DNA from: Yuukianura sp. NJ FZ-2021
Taxonomy: Eukaryota
Direction of reading: 5' to 3'
Length of the DNA: 64,000 nucleotides
NCBI GenBank assembly: GCA_046563655.1
Contig: CM102289.1
Span: forward strand, 6,510,001 to 6,574,000
Under the pieces are notes generated by a model that was not told the origin of the DNA, searched no databases, and was given only the letters and a program-made list of their open reading frames with translations. Positions 54,832 to 63,109 of this stretch are shown one piece after another (the first letter of the stretch is position 1; each line of letters opens with the position of its first letter). Position numbers and translations under genes: made by a program.

Positions 54832-56597
54832 TTACCGAAAAAAATAATGTGTTTTGTATTTGAACAAAATATTAGACATGTCCGTAAGCACATTACAATA
54901 CGATGGCATTCCAATCCAACTCTGCTGCATTTCCACGTTTTGCGAGTACACACAATACTTGTTCGTATGCGTTCCATGCTTCCTCAGAAAATGTTCACAA
55001 ATGACGAAATGTCTTTTTCTTGTCCTCCACCAACCTTTGACCTTTTCAACTTTTTGTTCTTTGAAATGTCTCAGGGTTTCCAAATTTGGAAATTGGCGAT
55101 GAAGACGCATGACCAATTCGGAGTTGCAATCTCCAATGAAACTAATTGCCAAAAATGTTAGTTGCTTGATTTCAACGTTTGAACCGTTTGTGGTGAATTC
55201 TGGAAAAATGTAGTTGAAATACTTGTCCTTGTCTGGAAATACTACGGTAATAGCGAGTTCCGTGAGGGATGGATACCGTGAGGAAAATTGCTCCCGCTAA
55301 AAATATTTTCACATTTATTCAAAATCAATCAATTTTTATATTTTTCACTATAATTATTATTTTGTTATACCAAAAATGTAGTTCTTAGGTTAAACGGATC
55401 TGCGAGTTCTGGGAAAAATTCATCTGGTTCAACAGGATGGTAGACTTCATAGTTTAAACACCTTAAAGCTGGAAATGAGTGACAGTTTCCTCCAAGGTCA
55501 CGTTCGTATTCTTCTTCGCCGTAACATAATCGACCAAAGTTGAGGTCCAAAATTTCCAGCGTTTGCGAATGTAAGGCGAAAAACTCCACTAAATCCCGTT
55601 CGTTCCTATTAGCTTGCGCACTGAAAACTTTCAATTTCCCGGGAAAGGCGAGTGAAAGTGAATGAGGTCCACACGCAGGATTGAGACGGATACCCTCCAA
55701 ATTTGAAAATATGTTTCGATTACTGTTGGAATTTAGCTCCTCTAAGCAATACTTTTGAAAGTAGTAGTCACTTCGTCTGCAATAGTACTGCCGCCACAGT
55801 TCCAGGTCAAGATATTTGACTTGTGCAAACAACTTCATCAAATGAAGATAACTTTCTTTGCTGACAACTTCATCCATTATGTCTTCAACATATTGAACTC
55901 CAAAAGAAAACGTTTCCAATTGCTGCAAACACTGAAAAGAGTCAAGTGGAATGGCTTGGCAGGCTTGATCTGTTGCTCGGATAAAATCCAGGGCCAATCT
56001 GCGCAGACTCGGAGATGCAGTGAGCATCTCAACCAAAAGTTTAGCGTCAATTTCATTTACTAACGCCATCTCGAGTCGAAGTTCAGTTAATATTGCGCCA
56101 GTATCGGACATTCTTTTGATAACTGCTATTATTTCCCTGGCGTAGGTGATACTGTTTTCCTGGAAGTAGATTTCTTGAGGAGATAACTTTCGATATGGCA
56201 TGTTTCCATATGACTCTCCCTCTGAATGCCACGGAAAATTGAGCAATGAAATGAGGAGTGCGTGATCTTGGGCCAAACTATTTGCGGTAATAAACTGCGA
56301 AACTGTGCCGAAGTCTGTTTCGGCCCCCGGAAAATGCCGAATGAATATTTTCGATCTAAAAGCTCGGCAAGCCTCTTTTGTCCAAAATTTTGAAACGAGT
56401 CTTGCAGATTTCAACGATTTGAGATCCAAAAATGAAAACACTGTTTCGAGTACGTATGGATTTTGAAGAGCTAATGGTACCGGTTTTGGCAAATTTTCAA
56501 ACACCACAACATCGTTACTTTGAAGATTGTGTTGAGCAAAACTATTGCAGGATTCAGAATGATTAGTGTTGAACAACAAACTCCAGAGTTGACCCAT
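54832..56597 (-). CDS. F-box/LRR-like protein, copy 3 (2 exons)
   Basis: MGQLWS start at 56597; paralog of copies 1 and 2 with the same intron. Confidence 0.82.
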
Positions 56598-57326
56598 ACC
56601 TGTAATGCTTTGAGCTTTCAAATAGTTAATCAAGTATGAATTATGATGTCAAGTTACACTTTACGTGCAAAAGTTTGAAAAGAAAATACAAAGCCGGTAC
56701 CACTGGAACAGAAAGATTCAAAGACGAAGAGTGAAAGTAGGAAGTTTATGAATGTTTATAAAAATCAATAAAATTGCGTGCGCAGCTTTTTTTTCAAAAA
56801 TTTCAATTTTATTTCATATCCTATTCCACCGATTTTTACAAATTGGTTTTTACATTGTGATTTTCTCAAAATTCACTAAAAATTGAAAATATTTGTCAAA
56901 TTTTCAAAATTCCTGAAATGCCTGAATTTTTTTTAAAGTTCCTACATTATTTGAAAATTATGGATTGAAAAACCCAACACCTCTGTACTTGATAGCTTCA
57001 TATTCCATAAAAAAGTACGGGTTTGGTTTAGCTAATTGTTGATTTAGTTGCTCTCAGTTTAAAACTTAATTTGCTTGATTTTGTTACATTTTTTAAAGTT
57101 AACGTTCCTGCACCTTTAATAACCCTAACGGAACGTTTTGTCAGCTGAACACCCTCTCTTTTGAAATATCGTACAACACAATAATGGCATTGATTTTAAA
57201 ATTTTTGCGTAATGGTTTCTGGAATTCACGAAATGAACGAACTGCTGACTTGATTTTAAAAAGTGTTATGACTACAATGTTAAAGTCGGTTAAAGTAGAA
57301 TGACGAATGAGGTGGAAGGTTAGGAA

Positions 57327-60300
57327 TCAAAACTTGAGTTTCTTTGGGGTTTCCCATGTAAAGCCTTCACGTCCAAAGTGGCCATAAGAACTGGTTGCCT
57401 GATAAATCGGTTTGCGCAAGTCCAAATCCCTACGAACACAAAACAAACATAATGTGAACAAATTGACCACAATAAAGCAAACACAAACGTTAAATATACA
57501 CTATAAAAGTTGACGTACTTGACAATTTTGCCAGGTCGAAGATCAAAGTTTTCTTTGACAATTTTAAGAAGTTCTTTCTGGGTTTTGCTGGAAGTTCCAT
57601 AGTCAAAGACGCTGATGGAAGTTGGCTCAGCGACACCAATGGCATAAGACACTTGAACGAGGCAGCGACGGCAAAGACCAGCGCTAACGAGAGACTTAGC
57701 AACCCAACGAGCCGCGTAAGCTGCAGATCTGTCCACTTTTGTAAAATCTTTTCCAGAGAAAGCACCACCGCCATGAGCACCCCAACCACCATAAGTATCC
57801 ACGATAATTTTTCGCCCAGTGAGACCCGCGTCACCCTAAAGTAAAAGTAAACACGTCAAGTACGAATGTGTAACACAATTTGTTGCCTATCTAACCTGAT
57901 TTTAACATTTAGCTTACCATTGGTCCACCAATGATGAAGTCTCCGCAAGGATTGATGTGGTATTTGGTTTCAGAGTCAAGATACTTGGCTGGAATCACTT
58001 CCTTGATGACTTTGGTCATGATTTCTTCTCTTAGTTGCTCCAGTGTTATTTTCTCAGAATGTTGAGTTGAAACAACGACGGAATGAACTCGGACTGGAAC
58101 GCATGCTCCGTGGTCAAAATAATACTCGCAAGTGACCTACAAAAACCATACGACAGAGGTCAACAACTTGAAACTTTATTGTTGCTGTAATTACAAATTT
58201 CTCGTTACCTGAGTTTTGGAATCCGGACGACCCCACCAGAATAGTCCATTTCGTCTTAGTTCTGACAACTTTTGATTCAGCTTATGAGCTAAAACAACCG
58301 TGAGTGGCATGTATTCTTCAGTTTCATCCGTGGCATAACCGAACATAAGACCCTGCGTCACAGTGAGGAAATCATCGTCATTTTATTTCATTTTTGAAAA
58401 CCCATTGAACACCTTCCAAAAAGCGTGAAGCAGTGAAAATTGGACAAGCTTTGATATTTTTAACAAATGTCAACACAGTTCCCCAACGTCCTTGTTCTAA
58501 AATTAGGTTAAAGATTAAAAGCCAAGACTAAAATTAGGCCAAATTGTGCACGTCATAAATTGTTAAAGTAAAAAAAAATTAAAAAAAGAAACGCATGCCG
58601 AAAAGCAAAAAAAAATGTTAAAATCCGTTTCCGCGTGTAGCAAAGAACGTGTTCTGCGGTCTGTACGGTGATTTAAGAGGCGATATCGATCAGTCAGAAG
58701 TCGTGCCAAAAAATAGTTCTAGAAAAAAGAACGCCACGAGCGTAAAAAACGAAAATGTCATTCTGTCAAGTGCGAAACATTCCAAAACAAGTGCAAAAAA
58801 GGTTAAAACACCTTCAAAGAGAAAAGTTAAAAATAAAACTAACGATTAGCACTACTAATGTGTAATGTCAAATTACGAAATTAGCCGAAAAAGTGAAACC
58901 AAAAGTACTGCACAGTTAGCATAAAAAAAGGTGTAGAAAAAGTCATAAAATGTGAAAGTTTATGCAGAGGAATTGACTTAAGGCAGAGATTGTGCTGGTG
59001 TACCCTTACAGGGCCCGATTCACGAATTGACATATTTGTTAACATGAAATTTATATGTCAATGTCTCTGACCTGATCCCCAGCCCCAATGTCCTCTGCAT
59101 GCCGGTCAATATGAACGCCTGAGGCAATATTTGGACTTTGTTGCTCCAATGCCAGTAACAAATTGCATGTACTATGATCAAATCCTAGAAGAGCAATAAA
59201 TAACAGTTCCATTTCATTCCATTGTTAGAGTTAGTAATTCAACACTTCAAACAATGCGTTGATGCTGTTGATTGAGCCAATTTCTTCAAAACCATTTCAT
59301 TAATGTAACTCCCGAAGCTTAGTAGTAAAATTTCATCAGCCAATTGTTGACATGCTGAAGCGCATGGGCGGAGGAGAGGAAACTGCGCATGTCACAACAA
59401 GGGAGATTGCGAAACAATTTTGAAAGGTCAACCTGGTCACCAGCTCCCAAGTCCTCTTCTTCACGGGCGATGTGAACACCACTTGCAATTTCTGGACTTT
59501 GTTCCTCAATTGCAATTAGCAAATTACAAGTTTTGTAGTCAAATCCTATGAAGGTTATGTTTAAAATTAAGTTGTTACAAAATCATTGGATTTGGGGTTT
59601 CTAAATTGATTGAAGTCATTCTGTCGTTTTTAAGCTGCATTAACCAGTATCAGTTAATCTACTGAGGTTAAAATGCGACATTTCCTTTGATCTCAAATCT
59701 TGAGAGAACTATGAAGATGATGCAATACTCTTAAAACACTATTTCAATTTAGACAAGATTAATGGGAATTATCCATCCCATTTCATAAGCTATGATTGAA
59801 AAATGGCTTCTTTGAGTCTCAACTGACGCTAAGGATGACCCTGGCAGATAAGGCGACTAACCTTTAGATGAATCGTCATAGCCTATGTGCTGTATGGTTC
59901 CTCGGACCACTTTCTGGTAATCTACTACCGCCTTGGAAGTAATTTCGCCGCAGATGAGAACCATTCCTGTCTTTGTAACTGTCTCTGTAAAGATTACAAG
60001 CATTAATATTTAAGATTAAAAGTCATACATACTTAATTTATTAGAAGTATTTCTGGAAAGTGACAAAAGTCTCCTCACCACAGGCAACTTTAGCATCCGG
60101 ATCTTGTTTCAAATGAGCATCTAGAATGGCGTCACTGATTTGATCACACATCTTATCTGGAAAAGTCAATACAATGGGGTGAGGTCATGGCCATATTAGA
60201 ATTACAAGTACGATCTATGATTACAATCTGGGAAAAACGTGCGCACAGACACAGAGCGTTTTCGGTGTAGGACTATCATCAACAAAGAAAAAAGTGGAGC

Positions 60301-60716
60301 GTCTGACGTGTGTCGGAGGTCAACTTTACCCCATTTTGAAATATTTTTTAAGTTTTCAAAAGCTGTCTTTGGAAAAAACCGCTTGAGTAGATAAACGTTG
60401 ACCGATAGCCTCTCGCTCTTGTGACTCTGCTGTGCTGACTCTACTTCCTCAAACGCCTTAATTTAAAATCTTATTCGAATTCGTTCCAAAGAAGATTTGG
60501 CACGCCAACAAAAGTAAAGGAAACCACCCAACCCAGTATTTCAAAAAAAATGAGAAACCATTTTAGTAATTTAGTAAATCACTGATTTTCAGAAAATTTA
60601 CCTGGATGACCTTCGCCAACTGATTCAGAAGTGAACAGAAATGTCTCTCCCTCTTCCAAATTGGCTTCGACGAATCTGCTTCCAGTGGAGACATGGTTCC
60701 CGTTTACGGTAGCCAT
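57327..60716 (-). CDS. Sam-S: S-adenosylmethionine synthetase (MAT)
   Basis: [75 protein letters not shown]…WETPKKLKF*. Confidence 0.97.
59072..59184 (-). other. Sam-S: Sam-S mutually exclusive exon, downstream variant ([38 protein letters not shown])
   Basis: 113 nt, AG/GT flanked, same phase as and paralogous to 59433-59545. Confidence 0.9.
59433..59545 (-). other. Sam-S: Sam-S mutually exclusive exon, upstream variant ([38 protein letters not shown])
   Basis: 113 nt, AG/GT flanked; including both exons would shift the frame. Confidence 0.9.
59973..59999 (-). promoter_or_regulatory. METTL16/METT-10-type m6A hairpin overlapping the 3' splice site of Sam-S intron 60078-59985
   Basis: Pre-mRNA UUGUAA-U-CU-UUACAG|AGAC-AG-UUACAA: stem UUGUAA/UUACAA plus CU/AG closes a loop with UACAGAGAC; the motif AG is the splice acceptor (A at 59986). 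Confidence 0.8.
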
Positions 60717-63109
60717 AGTTAATAATATAGTTCAAGTCGCGAAAGACGAAAAAGCGTCTTCTTCAGTACCTAAATTCAAAAAGACAATAACTGATTATGT
60801 ACTTTATTCCATTCCCAGTTGTAAATGCATTGTTGGTTTGTTAACTAAAGTCTATCGGATTCGGAATAGAAAGCTGTGTATCGGATATCTCAGTTTAGTG
60901 CAAACATACGACCGAAAAGAATAAAACGGTGGATGACCTCTGACCTATTACCTGATGACCCAAACGCGTGTTTGGAATGAACTCTCGATGGCCACTACAC
61001 ACCGGATGGGGCCCCAAATCCGAAAAGAAAGAGCTCAAAATGTGCAGTGCACGAGAAAATTTCAAAAGAGTATAAAATATAAAGGCACTACACTAATCCA
61101 ATGAAAAGTTACACTCCGGAAATTCGGGAAAATGGACGTCGCGGCTCGCGGATGCGTGATACTAGGAAATATAGCAAATATGCATAAAAAACATGAAAAG
61201 ATTTTGCTTTAAACTTTGTAAATTACGCACGTTTTAGCTAGCGATTCTTAATCGTAACCTTAACGAGTTGGCTCGTAATCAATGTTAGGAAGCTCTACTA
61301 TTCGTTTATTTCGCAGATTAGTTTCAGTTGCTACAAGGTTACAGTTACAATAGATTTCCGACTGTCGTGTGTGTCTTCATCATCATCTGTAACTTTGAAT
61401 GTTTAAGGATATTTAGCATCATGCGCTCGACAAACGTCGTGTACTAGACTAACCTATCTTGAAATTTCGTAACTCCAGAATCTTCTGAGGGGACTGTCGC
61501 AACTTTCACATTGCAGAGGATTAGTGCACTCAAGAAATCAATGTCGCGTTACGTTTTACGGATAGGAAATAAGAGAAAAAATTGTGGTTACGGTTGTGTC
61601 TACGAGTAAGTACTGAAAGGAGATTCGATAATTTCGTTACCATCTGATATTTTTGACACGGATGCTATTTTTTGGAGGATAAATTATATTTTATGACACT
61701 TTTTACTATGGAATTTCGAATTTCTCTTGTCAAGGTTTACAGCAAGGTGAGAACAATAACCTATTCTTCATAGCTAACAGGCTTCGCACAAAATTTGCAC
61801 AAATGTTGGAAATTTTGAACAAGTTTCCTTACCTTGACAAAATGCTTTTGTGACTTTTCAGTTAAGACGACTGTCTGTGGTTCTAGTCCAGCCACTTTCC
61901 TTTGAAGTTCAAGAGCAACTGGCGCAAGAGGATGTTGAATGGTGGAGTGACCAGAATAAAAGAACAGTTCTGTCGTGACGGATTAACTGACTACGCTATG
62001 CTTTTTCATCTCGTTCGTCCAAGGCAGTTTTAACTTCTTGATAAGGACAACCTCGAACACAATTTAGTGGTAAGGGAGGTGTCGGAATTGGAATTCTTCT
62101 CGAATTGAATAGTATCTGTTTCTGTAGTTTAATAGTTTACTGTTAAAGCCTACTAAACTGTCATGATAATAGTATATGAACTTTAAACTCATTTTGTTCG
62201 GCAGGGTTCGACGCATAAATAAAACCGGTTTCAAGGCGTGCTACGCTACATTCAACAATGAACCAGGAGAAGTTTGTCCCCCGGGTTAGTTTCGCCTTCG
62301 CCTCTGACAATGTTCTACTGGTCATATTTACAAATAAGATGCTACTAGTATTCGAGCTACTTTCAATTCAAATTATAGTTAGAATCCTGTTTGACCACAA
62401 TTTCCAGATTACCATGTCTTCAGACGGGATGGTTTAAGTCTGAGAGACCAGCTCGAACACGAGGAGGTTTTTAGCTGACCATGACGTCGTAAATGTGCGA
62501 ACTCACGTCAATGGAAACGAGCTTTTCGTTGGTGACCTTTGTGACAAACAACATTTGACGTTTGTTGTTTGTATTGTATTTCACGAAAACTTAACTTTTT
62601 ACAATAGGCTGCAAGATTGTCTAATTTTTGGAATAAACTGGTTTCTAATTTTTATTAGCCCTGTCGAAAACAATTTGGAATCATCTAGGATGCCGGTGAC
62701 ATTCTTTTGTCAATTATCATCAAGACACAGTTTGCCCAGAAGAAAAAACTGAAACAAAAATCATTCTTTTAGTCACATGAATTCCAAACTGCTTTTTCCA
62801 AGTCAAACAAATCCATTTTCAATATAAAATGGAGGATTTACGACGCCACGTTGATACTATAACCAAGCGCGTTTGTGAACCGTAACTTCCCGTCCTAATA
62901 TTTCCACGACAGAGTTTAACGTCGTCAACTTTCATTCATCACAACTAAAATTGCACAACTTCCTTGTGATGGTGACGACGGCAATGAAAACATTAACCAG
63001 TTAAGATCAAAATTGTAATTTCATTTGAAAAAGTTACGATTTCCTTATTCCTATTGAATAAAACCAATTAATTTTCCGCGGTTGTCCTAATTTCTTAGGT
63101 CGTGATTAT

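Follow-up and report, generated by a model that had tools for sequence, protein, structure and literature searches.

A METTL16-type motif in a candidate hairpin at the intron 2 acceptor of a SAM-synthetase gene from Yuukianura sp.

The analyzed window is a 64,000-nucleotide (nt) stretch of DNA from Yuukianura sp. NJ FZ-2021 (GenBank assembly GCA_046563655.1, contig CM102289.1, positions 6,510,001 to 6,574,000), the minus strand of which carries a gene for S-adenosylmethionine (SAM) synthetase. We focus on the acceptor of the second intron of this gene, where a METTL16-type methylation motif coincides with the 3' splice site and lies in the loop of a potential hairpin. Splicing of eight coding exons, with either of two alternatives for exon 4, yields an open protein of 403 amino acids (aa); the elements of the gene are listed in Table 1. 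The protein is identified by its 92.5% identity to the database SAM synthetase P0001; it is 83.7% identical to the Allacma fusca protein, and single exons of the gene match the Pfam families PF00438, PF02772, and PF02773. A maximum-likelihood tree of 33 rows groups the window protein with those of Allacma, Folsomia, and Orchesella and with several other proteins, apart from insects, at weak support (87/70). Since it falls together with these three named springtails, the gene is probably of springtail or close-relative affinity.

The junction of exons 2 and 3 reads G|AG ACA GTT ACA AAG on the minus strand, which encodes E-T-V-T-K after V-A-C. Across this junction runs the motif UACAGAGA(C), the fourth base of which is the acceptor A of intron 2; it agrees with the 8-mers UACAGAGA/UACAGAAA published for 3' splice sites and with the worm nonamer ending in C, as the METTL16-type motif is defined in two studies (PMC8208822, PMC9286414). 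The intron 2 acceptor is the sole TACAGARA site of the SAM-synthetase gene, and UACAG is found at none of its seven other acceptors. The motif by itself is not rare, given that TACAGARA is seen six times in the window with 5.3 occurrences expected; its non-chance aspect is the placement at one particular acceptor of this gene. The acceptor has a short pyrimidine tract, and the upstream UAUUAAU, which fits the consensus YNYURAY, is presumably a candidate for the branch point. A transcript that retains intron 2 is read for 12 codons and then meets an in-frame TAA, i.e., it is non-productive.

The arms of the hairpin, UUGUAA (59999..59994) in the intron and UUACAA (59978..59973) in the exon, are exact complements, and a U:G pair of 59993 with 59979 lengthens the stem from 6 to 7 base pairs (bp). 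A sequence-only reading of this DNA had placed the acceptor of the 94-nt intron within VAC|ETVTK inside this UUGUAA/UUACAA hairpin and had located an in-frame stop 12 codons into the retained intron; its statements on the sequence are all correct, and the stop is the TAA at 60043..60041. The stem covers the entire stretch from the candidate branch point to the exon. The hairpin is retained in the minimum free energy (MFE) structure of a 161-nt context, and for a 31-mer taken by itself, as used in published in vitro assays, P = 0.94 is obtained both for the formation of the outer stem and for the target A being unpaired. Thermodynamically, the hairpin is marginal, and alone it is no better than chance. 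An Rfam scan of 56300..60900 at E <= 10 returned no family but two chance hits located elsewhere.

Table 1. Elements of the SAM-synthetase gene and of its intron 2 acceptor (positions in the window).
Feature	Positions	Strand	Remarks
SAM synthetase (methionine adenosyltransferase), coding sequence	57327..60716	-	ATG at 60716, TGA stop 57329..57327, 8 coding exons, 403 aa
Exon 2, 78 nt, 26 residues and first base of Glu codon	60079..60156	-	ends GCC TGT G at 60079
Intron 2, 94 nt, GTGAGG...TTACAG	59985..60078	-	phase 1, within Glu codon of ACETV
In-frame TAA in intron 2	60041..60043	-	open reading frame 60041..60184
Candidate branch point UAUUAAU	60002..60008	-	branch A 60003, 18 nt from acceptor
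Hairpin 5' arm UUGUAAU	59993..59999	-	intron positions -15 to -9
METTL16-type nonamer UACAG|AGAC	59981..59989	-	candidate N6-methyladenosine (m6A) site, acceptor A at 59986
Hairpin 3' arm GUUACAA	59973..59979	-	exon positions +6 to +12, Val-Thr-Lys codons
Exon 3, 123 nt, 41 residues	59862..59984	-	begins AGACAGTTACAAAG at 59984
Alternative exon 4a, 113 nt	59433..59545	-	mutually exclusive with exon 4b
Alternative exon 4b, 113 nt	59072..59184	-	mutually exclusive with exon 4a

The same intron was sought in other lineages by scanning a metagenome collection with the degenerate pattern E-T-V-x-K-T-G-M-x4-G-E-I-T, in which the opening base of the Glu codon could be supplied by the last G of the intron. 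The scan yielded at least 116 loci, and all lineage counts given here refer to the matches listed. The reading frame is uninterrupted (cDNA-like, i.e., resembling complementary DNA, or intronless) in 85 of these loci, and 26 have an intron at exactly the position of intron 2 in the window. By nucleotide alignability the 26 loci form 10 lineages, assignments that rest on short exons. The intron ends in UACAG in four of them and thus, with the window, in five of 11 lineages. These four are the insect-type group B (L020, L046, L085, L097, L107, and L109), in which the exon 3 peptide of L046 is identical to Periplaneta and Papilio proteins; the insect-type L030; the Daphnia-type L074, the exon 3 of which matches a Daphnia pulicaria protein at 100% identity; and the divergent L087. 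The six lineages without the motif end in AUCAG (springtail-type L065, the exon 3 of which is 95% identical to that of the window at the protein level), CACAG (hymenopteran-type L014 and L050), CUCAG (fish-type L053), CGUAG (L012, one locus), CAUAG or CACAG (group H, 7 loci), and UGUAG (group I, 5 loci). The exon of L065 is 100% identical in DNA to the cDNA-like locus L066, which in turn shares 86.6% identity over 403 aa with the window protein. Random acceptors would be expected to read UACAG at a rate of about 1 in 14 (~7%), a rough estimate from splice-site frequencies. The occurrence of UACAG in five of 11 lineages is far above this rough expectation, and the motif is clearly not universal.

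Two further arrangements were seen around this acceptor. In the copepod-type loci L025, L039, L054, L099, and L106, the best match of which is a Tigriopus (copepod) protein, the intron lies three codons upstream (...cag|GTN GCN TGY GAR), and the shifted acceptor of these five loci has no UACAG. In the window, a second CAG is found 6 nt into exon 3 (59981..59979, minus strand), so that the junction reads UACAG|AGACAG|UU; use of this tandem CAG as the acceptor would drop Glu-Thr in frame. The tandem arrangement is also present in group B (L020 and others).

With intron positions counted backwards (-) and exon positions forwards (+) from the junction, a common register, first noticed in the window and group B folds, pairs intron position -d with exon position +(d-3). 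In this register U-6 faces A+1, U-7 faces C+4, and after one C.A mismatch comes the stem; the linker length would be 0. Five representatives of the motif-bearing lineages (the window, L107, L030, L074, and L087) form 37 of 55 possible pairs in the register, compared with 24.6 +/- 3.3 when the intron ends are shuffled; a fraction of 0.0001 of 20,000 shuffles reaches this count, and eight alternative registers give 20-32 pairs in the same representatives. Further members of groups B, H, and I were excluded to keep a single lineage from being counted several times. In eight representatives lacking the motif, 33 of 88 pairs are formed, and shuffles give 35.0 +/- 4.0. In a gap-free alignment, 69.0% of 84 cells are paired for the motif lineages in the shared register and 35.7-58.7% in slid registers; column shuffles pair 65.1 +/- 2.5%, and 46 of 500 reach 69.0%. 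For the lineages without the motif, 35.6% of cells are paired in the shared register. The U at -6 is invariant in all nine motif-bearing rows. A different fold is seen at the junctions of L102, L108, and L087, where the acceptor is inside a short stem with the loop AAA, in which CACAG or UUACAG is paired with CUGUG(G) of the Thr-Val codons; this stem buries the AG rather than exposing it.

A switch at an acceptor of a SAM-synthetase gene is known from C. elegans. In sams-3, Mendel et al. (2021, PMC8208822) found the acceptor A of UACAG|AAAC, where intron 2 meets exon 3, to be methylated by METT-10; the switch needs a stem-loop, U2AF35-dependent splicing is blocked on a rich diet, and it is m6A itself, not binding or structure, that stops splicing. 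The sequence-only reading had treated this m6A block of sams splicing under high SAM as established, in agreement with that study. The motif is also reported there at the sams acceptors of the fly and the silk moth, human METTL16 is described as methylating the acceptor A of ~30-nt junction RNAs from both insects in vitro, and the device is proposed to be common in invertebrates. The layout of the substrate is given in a further study (PMC10018337) as a stem, a transition region, in which a U is paired to A19 and a U or G faces position 22, and a loop that consists of a linker of variable length and U14-A15-C16-A17-G18. For mouse, a 2026 preprint (10.64898/2026.10.16.759739) reports no methylation at the one testable proposed METTL16 acceptor.

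The window shares with C. elegans sams-3/4/5 the SAM-synthetase pre-mRNA, the UACAG with the acceptor A as the target, and, as a candidate, the stem-loop over the junction. In sams-3, the exon likewise starts with A-R-A-C (AAAC in the worm, AGAC in the window), uridines 5' of the motif are able to face A+1 and C+4, and the outcome is non-productive when the acceptor is unused. We infer that the window pairs U-6/A+1 and U-7/C+4 correspond to the worm U10-A19 and U9-C22 (PMC10018337). However, the stem in the window begins after one further mismatch, and no linker would separate UACAG from the transition uridines; the numbering of the worm hairpin implies one of 3 nt (our mapping from the published text). 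In addition, retention is the only evident outcome in the window, while the worm also uses an upstream alternative acceptor; the CCAG in intron 2 that might play this role was rejected by inference, since at 26 nt from the donor it was judged too close. Drosophila Sams and Bombyx mori sams are, like the window gene, hexapod/pancrustacean SAM-synthetase genes with the motif at an acceptor, and the gene family there also has alternative isoforms. The motif itself differs between fly and window: UACAGAAAC at the intron 4/exon 5 junction of Drosophila Sams, according to a 2026 study (PMC13608003), and UACAGAGAC in the window.

Two other METTL16 substrates resemble the site less closely in context. 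The vertebrate MAT2A hairpins hp1-hp6 have the same UACAGAGA core, in hp1 the same A-G-A at positions 19-21 (G+2 and A+3 of the window being G20 and A21 of hp1), and the same hairpin context; SAM feedback on the same enzyme is a feature of MAT2A and would be presumed for the window. In contrast to the window hairpin, those of MAT2A are located in the 3' untranslated region (UTR) and act via METTL16 dwell time and a vertebrate-only C-terminal region. A MAT2A-type 3'-UTR array of UACAGAGAA hairpins was ruled out for the window gene, as no TACAGARA occurs on either strand from the stop codon (57327) to 39288 and the Rfam scan of 56300..60900 gave no match apart from the two chance hits. The A43 site of U6 small nuclear RNA (UACAGAGAA) shares the core sequence with the window, and METTL16, the U6 enzyme, is the putative enzyme for the window as well; U6, however, does not code for protein, carries the motif in an internal bulge, and lacks a regulatory splice-site role.

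The motif, its exact placement at the acceptor, the stem, the premature stop, and the recurrence of UACAG in several pancrustacean-type lineages are observations that underlie our interpretation. We tentatively propose, with slightly less than even confidence, that the intron 2 acceptor corresponds to the METT-10/METTL16 target described in C. elegans sams-3/4/5 at the boundary of intron 2 and exon 3. The acceptor is likely to be methylatable in vitro, whereas SAM sensing in vivo would be an unproven extrapolation from the published mechanism. In the proposed scheme, the pre-mRNA would fold into a hairpin with UACAG at its tip, below which come two uridines opposite A+1 and C+4, the C.A mismatch, and the 7-bp stem. 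When SAM is plentiful, METTL16 would methylate the acceptor adenosine at 59986, and m6A at this position would weaken the binding of U2AF35 to an acceptor with a short pyrimidine tract. Intron 2 would then be retained, and less enzyme would be made, because the transcript meets the TAA after 12 codons. At low SAM the site would presumably stay unmethylated and splicing would be normal. Caution about SAM sensing in vivo is called for by the result from flies on normal food and by the fact that a close relative has lost the motif, both considered below. As a feedback device, this is a new example of one described in worms and noted in insects, not a new mechanism.

A number of results weigh against this proposal. 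As for the hairpin, the 46-nt fold has an MFE of -4.1 kcal/mol (z = -0.11), and equally good folds are obtained for 89 of 200 shuffles; the 161-nt context gives z = +0.19, and U-rich intron ends pair readily with purine-rich exon starts. The shared register was picked after two folds had been seen. Covariation is not significant, as four pairs change on both sides, which is matched by 85 of 500 shuffles, and the covariation score is equalled in 64 of 500. RNAalifold found 0 consensus pairs on a MAFFT alignment of the nine motif junctions; MAFFT had gapped the intron side, and gap-free alignments were then scored with the named structure. In a register-free thermodynamic test, the acceptor is enclosed with its A unpaired in the window (z = 1.4, intron-only shuffle) and in three of five group B loci (z = 1.9-2.2), and no such enclosure is obtained in L030, L074, and L087. 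Footprinting within group B is uninformative, because the entire intron is 87% conserved. Motif and pairing potential thus co-occur, and the evidence for a conserved structure, which rests partly on a register chosen post hoc, is moderate. As for the motif, its exonic half ARAC is dictated by codons, because a phase-1 intron within Glu-Thr obliges the exon to start with A-R-A-C; therefore, only the intronic UAC counts as free evidence. The closest relative among the loci listed, L065, has AUCAG after a long U-rich tract, and the hymenopteran-type L014 has CACAG. As for the enzyme, worm METT-10 is described as inefficient on insect junction RNAs by Mendel et al. (PMC8208822), and in the 2026 fly study no m6A peak is reported at the Sams junction of Drosophila, the sole hexapod tested in vivo, where amounts of mature Sams mRNA and of the intron did not change in Mettl16 mutants fed normal food (PMC13608003). 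The sequence-only reading had proposed that the same SAM feedback works here. The UACAG on the acceptor A, the predicted stem-loop with the A unpaired, the short pyrimidine tract, and the premature stop agree with that proposal, which is weakened by the negative fly result in vivo, the AUCAG of L065, the marginal hairpin, and the codon-forced exonic half, and which describes no new mechanism.

Several of these points would also be expected if the site is inherited but idle, UACAG being a relic of an ancestral ecdysozoan site or merely tolerated, and intron 2 being spliced regardless of SAM; we regard this as a real possibility, albeit a rather doubtful one. It would fit the negative Drosophila result in vivo on normal food (PMC13608003), the loss of the motif with retention of the intron in both L065, the nearest listed relative, and the hymenopteran-type L014, the marginal hairpin, and the covariation that is not significant. 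An idle relic accounts less well for the retention of UACAG at this acceptor in five of 11 lineages, for the invariant U at -6 in nine motif rows, and for in-register pairing that is higher with the motif than without it. Moreover, the fly study covered the normal diet only, whereas the worm switch is triggered by a rich diet (PMC13608003, PMC8208822).

The same three bases before the acceptor AG also bear on mere coincidence, i.e., an ordinary acceptor that reads UAC before AG and has its motif completed by the codon-forced ARAC. Only three bases are free, and the six TACAGARA in the window hardly exceed the expected 5.3; however, these bases are found again at this acceptor in four further lineages among the loci listed and are reported by Mendel et al. 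(PMC8208822) in nematodes, the fly, and the silk moth, so that we consider coincidence very improbable. We assign a similarly low probability to control by structure only, in which the hairpin would hide the short pyrimidine tract and the AG and tune splicing efficiency or the choice of acceptor without methylation. The span of the stem from the candidate branch point to the exon is consistent with such a role, as is the folding of the acceptor into a CACAG/CUGUG-type stem in the motif-less L102 and L108 and also in L087. However, the stem is weak at -4.1 kcal/mol, the recurrence of UACAG would be left unexplained, and in the worm it is m6A, not binding or structure, that blocks splicing (PMC8208822).

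The methylation proposal can be extended to a wider reading, which we consider unlikely. A linker-less METTL16 hairpin, with UACAG as the whole apical loop closed by the U that faces A+1, would be an ancient pancrustacean SAM sensor that persists in Daphnia-type, springtail, and several insect lineages but was repeatedly lost, namely in another springtail-type lineage, in a hymenopteran-type lineage, and in copepod-types with a moved intron. Use restricted to methionine or SAM excess would account for the negative outcome in Drosophila on normal food, and a block of the first AG could shift splicing to the tandem CAG at 59981..59979, with an in-frame product lacking Glu-Thr. If the intron 2 acceptor is functional, feedback on SAM synthesis via m6A at an acceptor would extend from nematodes to a non-insect hexapod, and Mendel et al. 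would be supported in proposing that the device is common among invertebrates. The negative Drosophila result has reopened the question of whether arthropods use the acceptor site, and the comparative pattern offers natural controls, since the motif and the shared register are jointly present in some lineages and jointly absent in close relatives.

Downstream of exon 3, the alternative exons 4a and 4b are mutually exclusive, because inclusion of both or of neither would shift the frame, and either of them leads to a full-length protein that is 92.5% or 91.8% identical to P0001. The sequence-only reading had combined these exons with the acceptor motif into a layered control of SAM synthesis; the adjacency is real, the two exons lying just downstream, and nothing links the two. 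Two or three tandem matches to exon 4 (residues ~105-143) are found in the copepod-type metagenome loci L043, L039, L054, and L075, with three in L043. Many predicted insect proteins are 439-474 aa long, and both alternatives may have been concatenated in them by gene predictors. Given the tandem copies in copepod-type loci and these over-long insect proteins, the exon 4 duplication looks old and widespread in pancrustaceans.

A single open frame of 427 aa (55368..56648, minus strand) follows the SAM-synthetase gene directly downstream on the same strand and has a weak match to the F-box family PF00646 (E = 5.8e-4), just below the gathering score.

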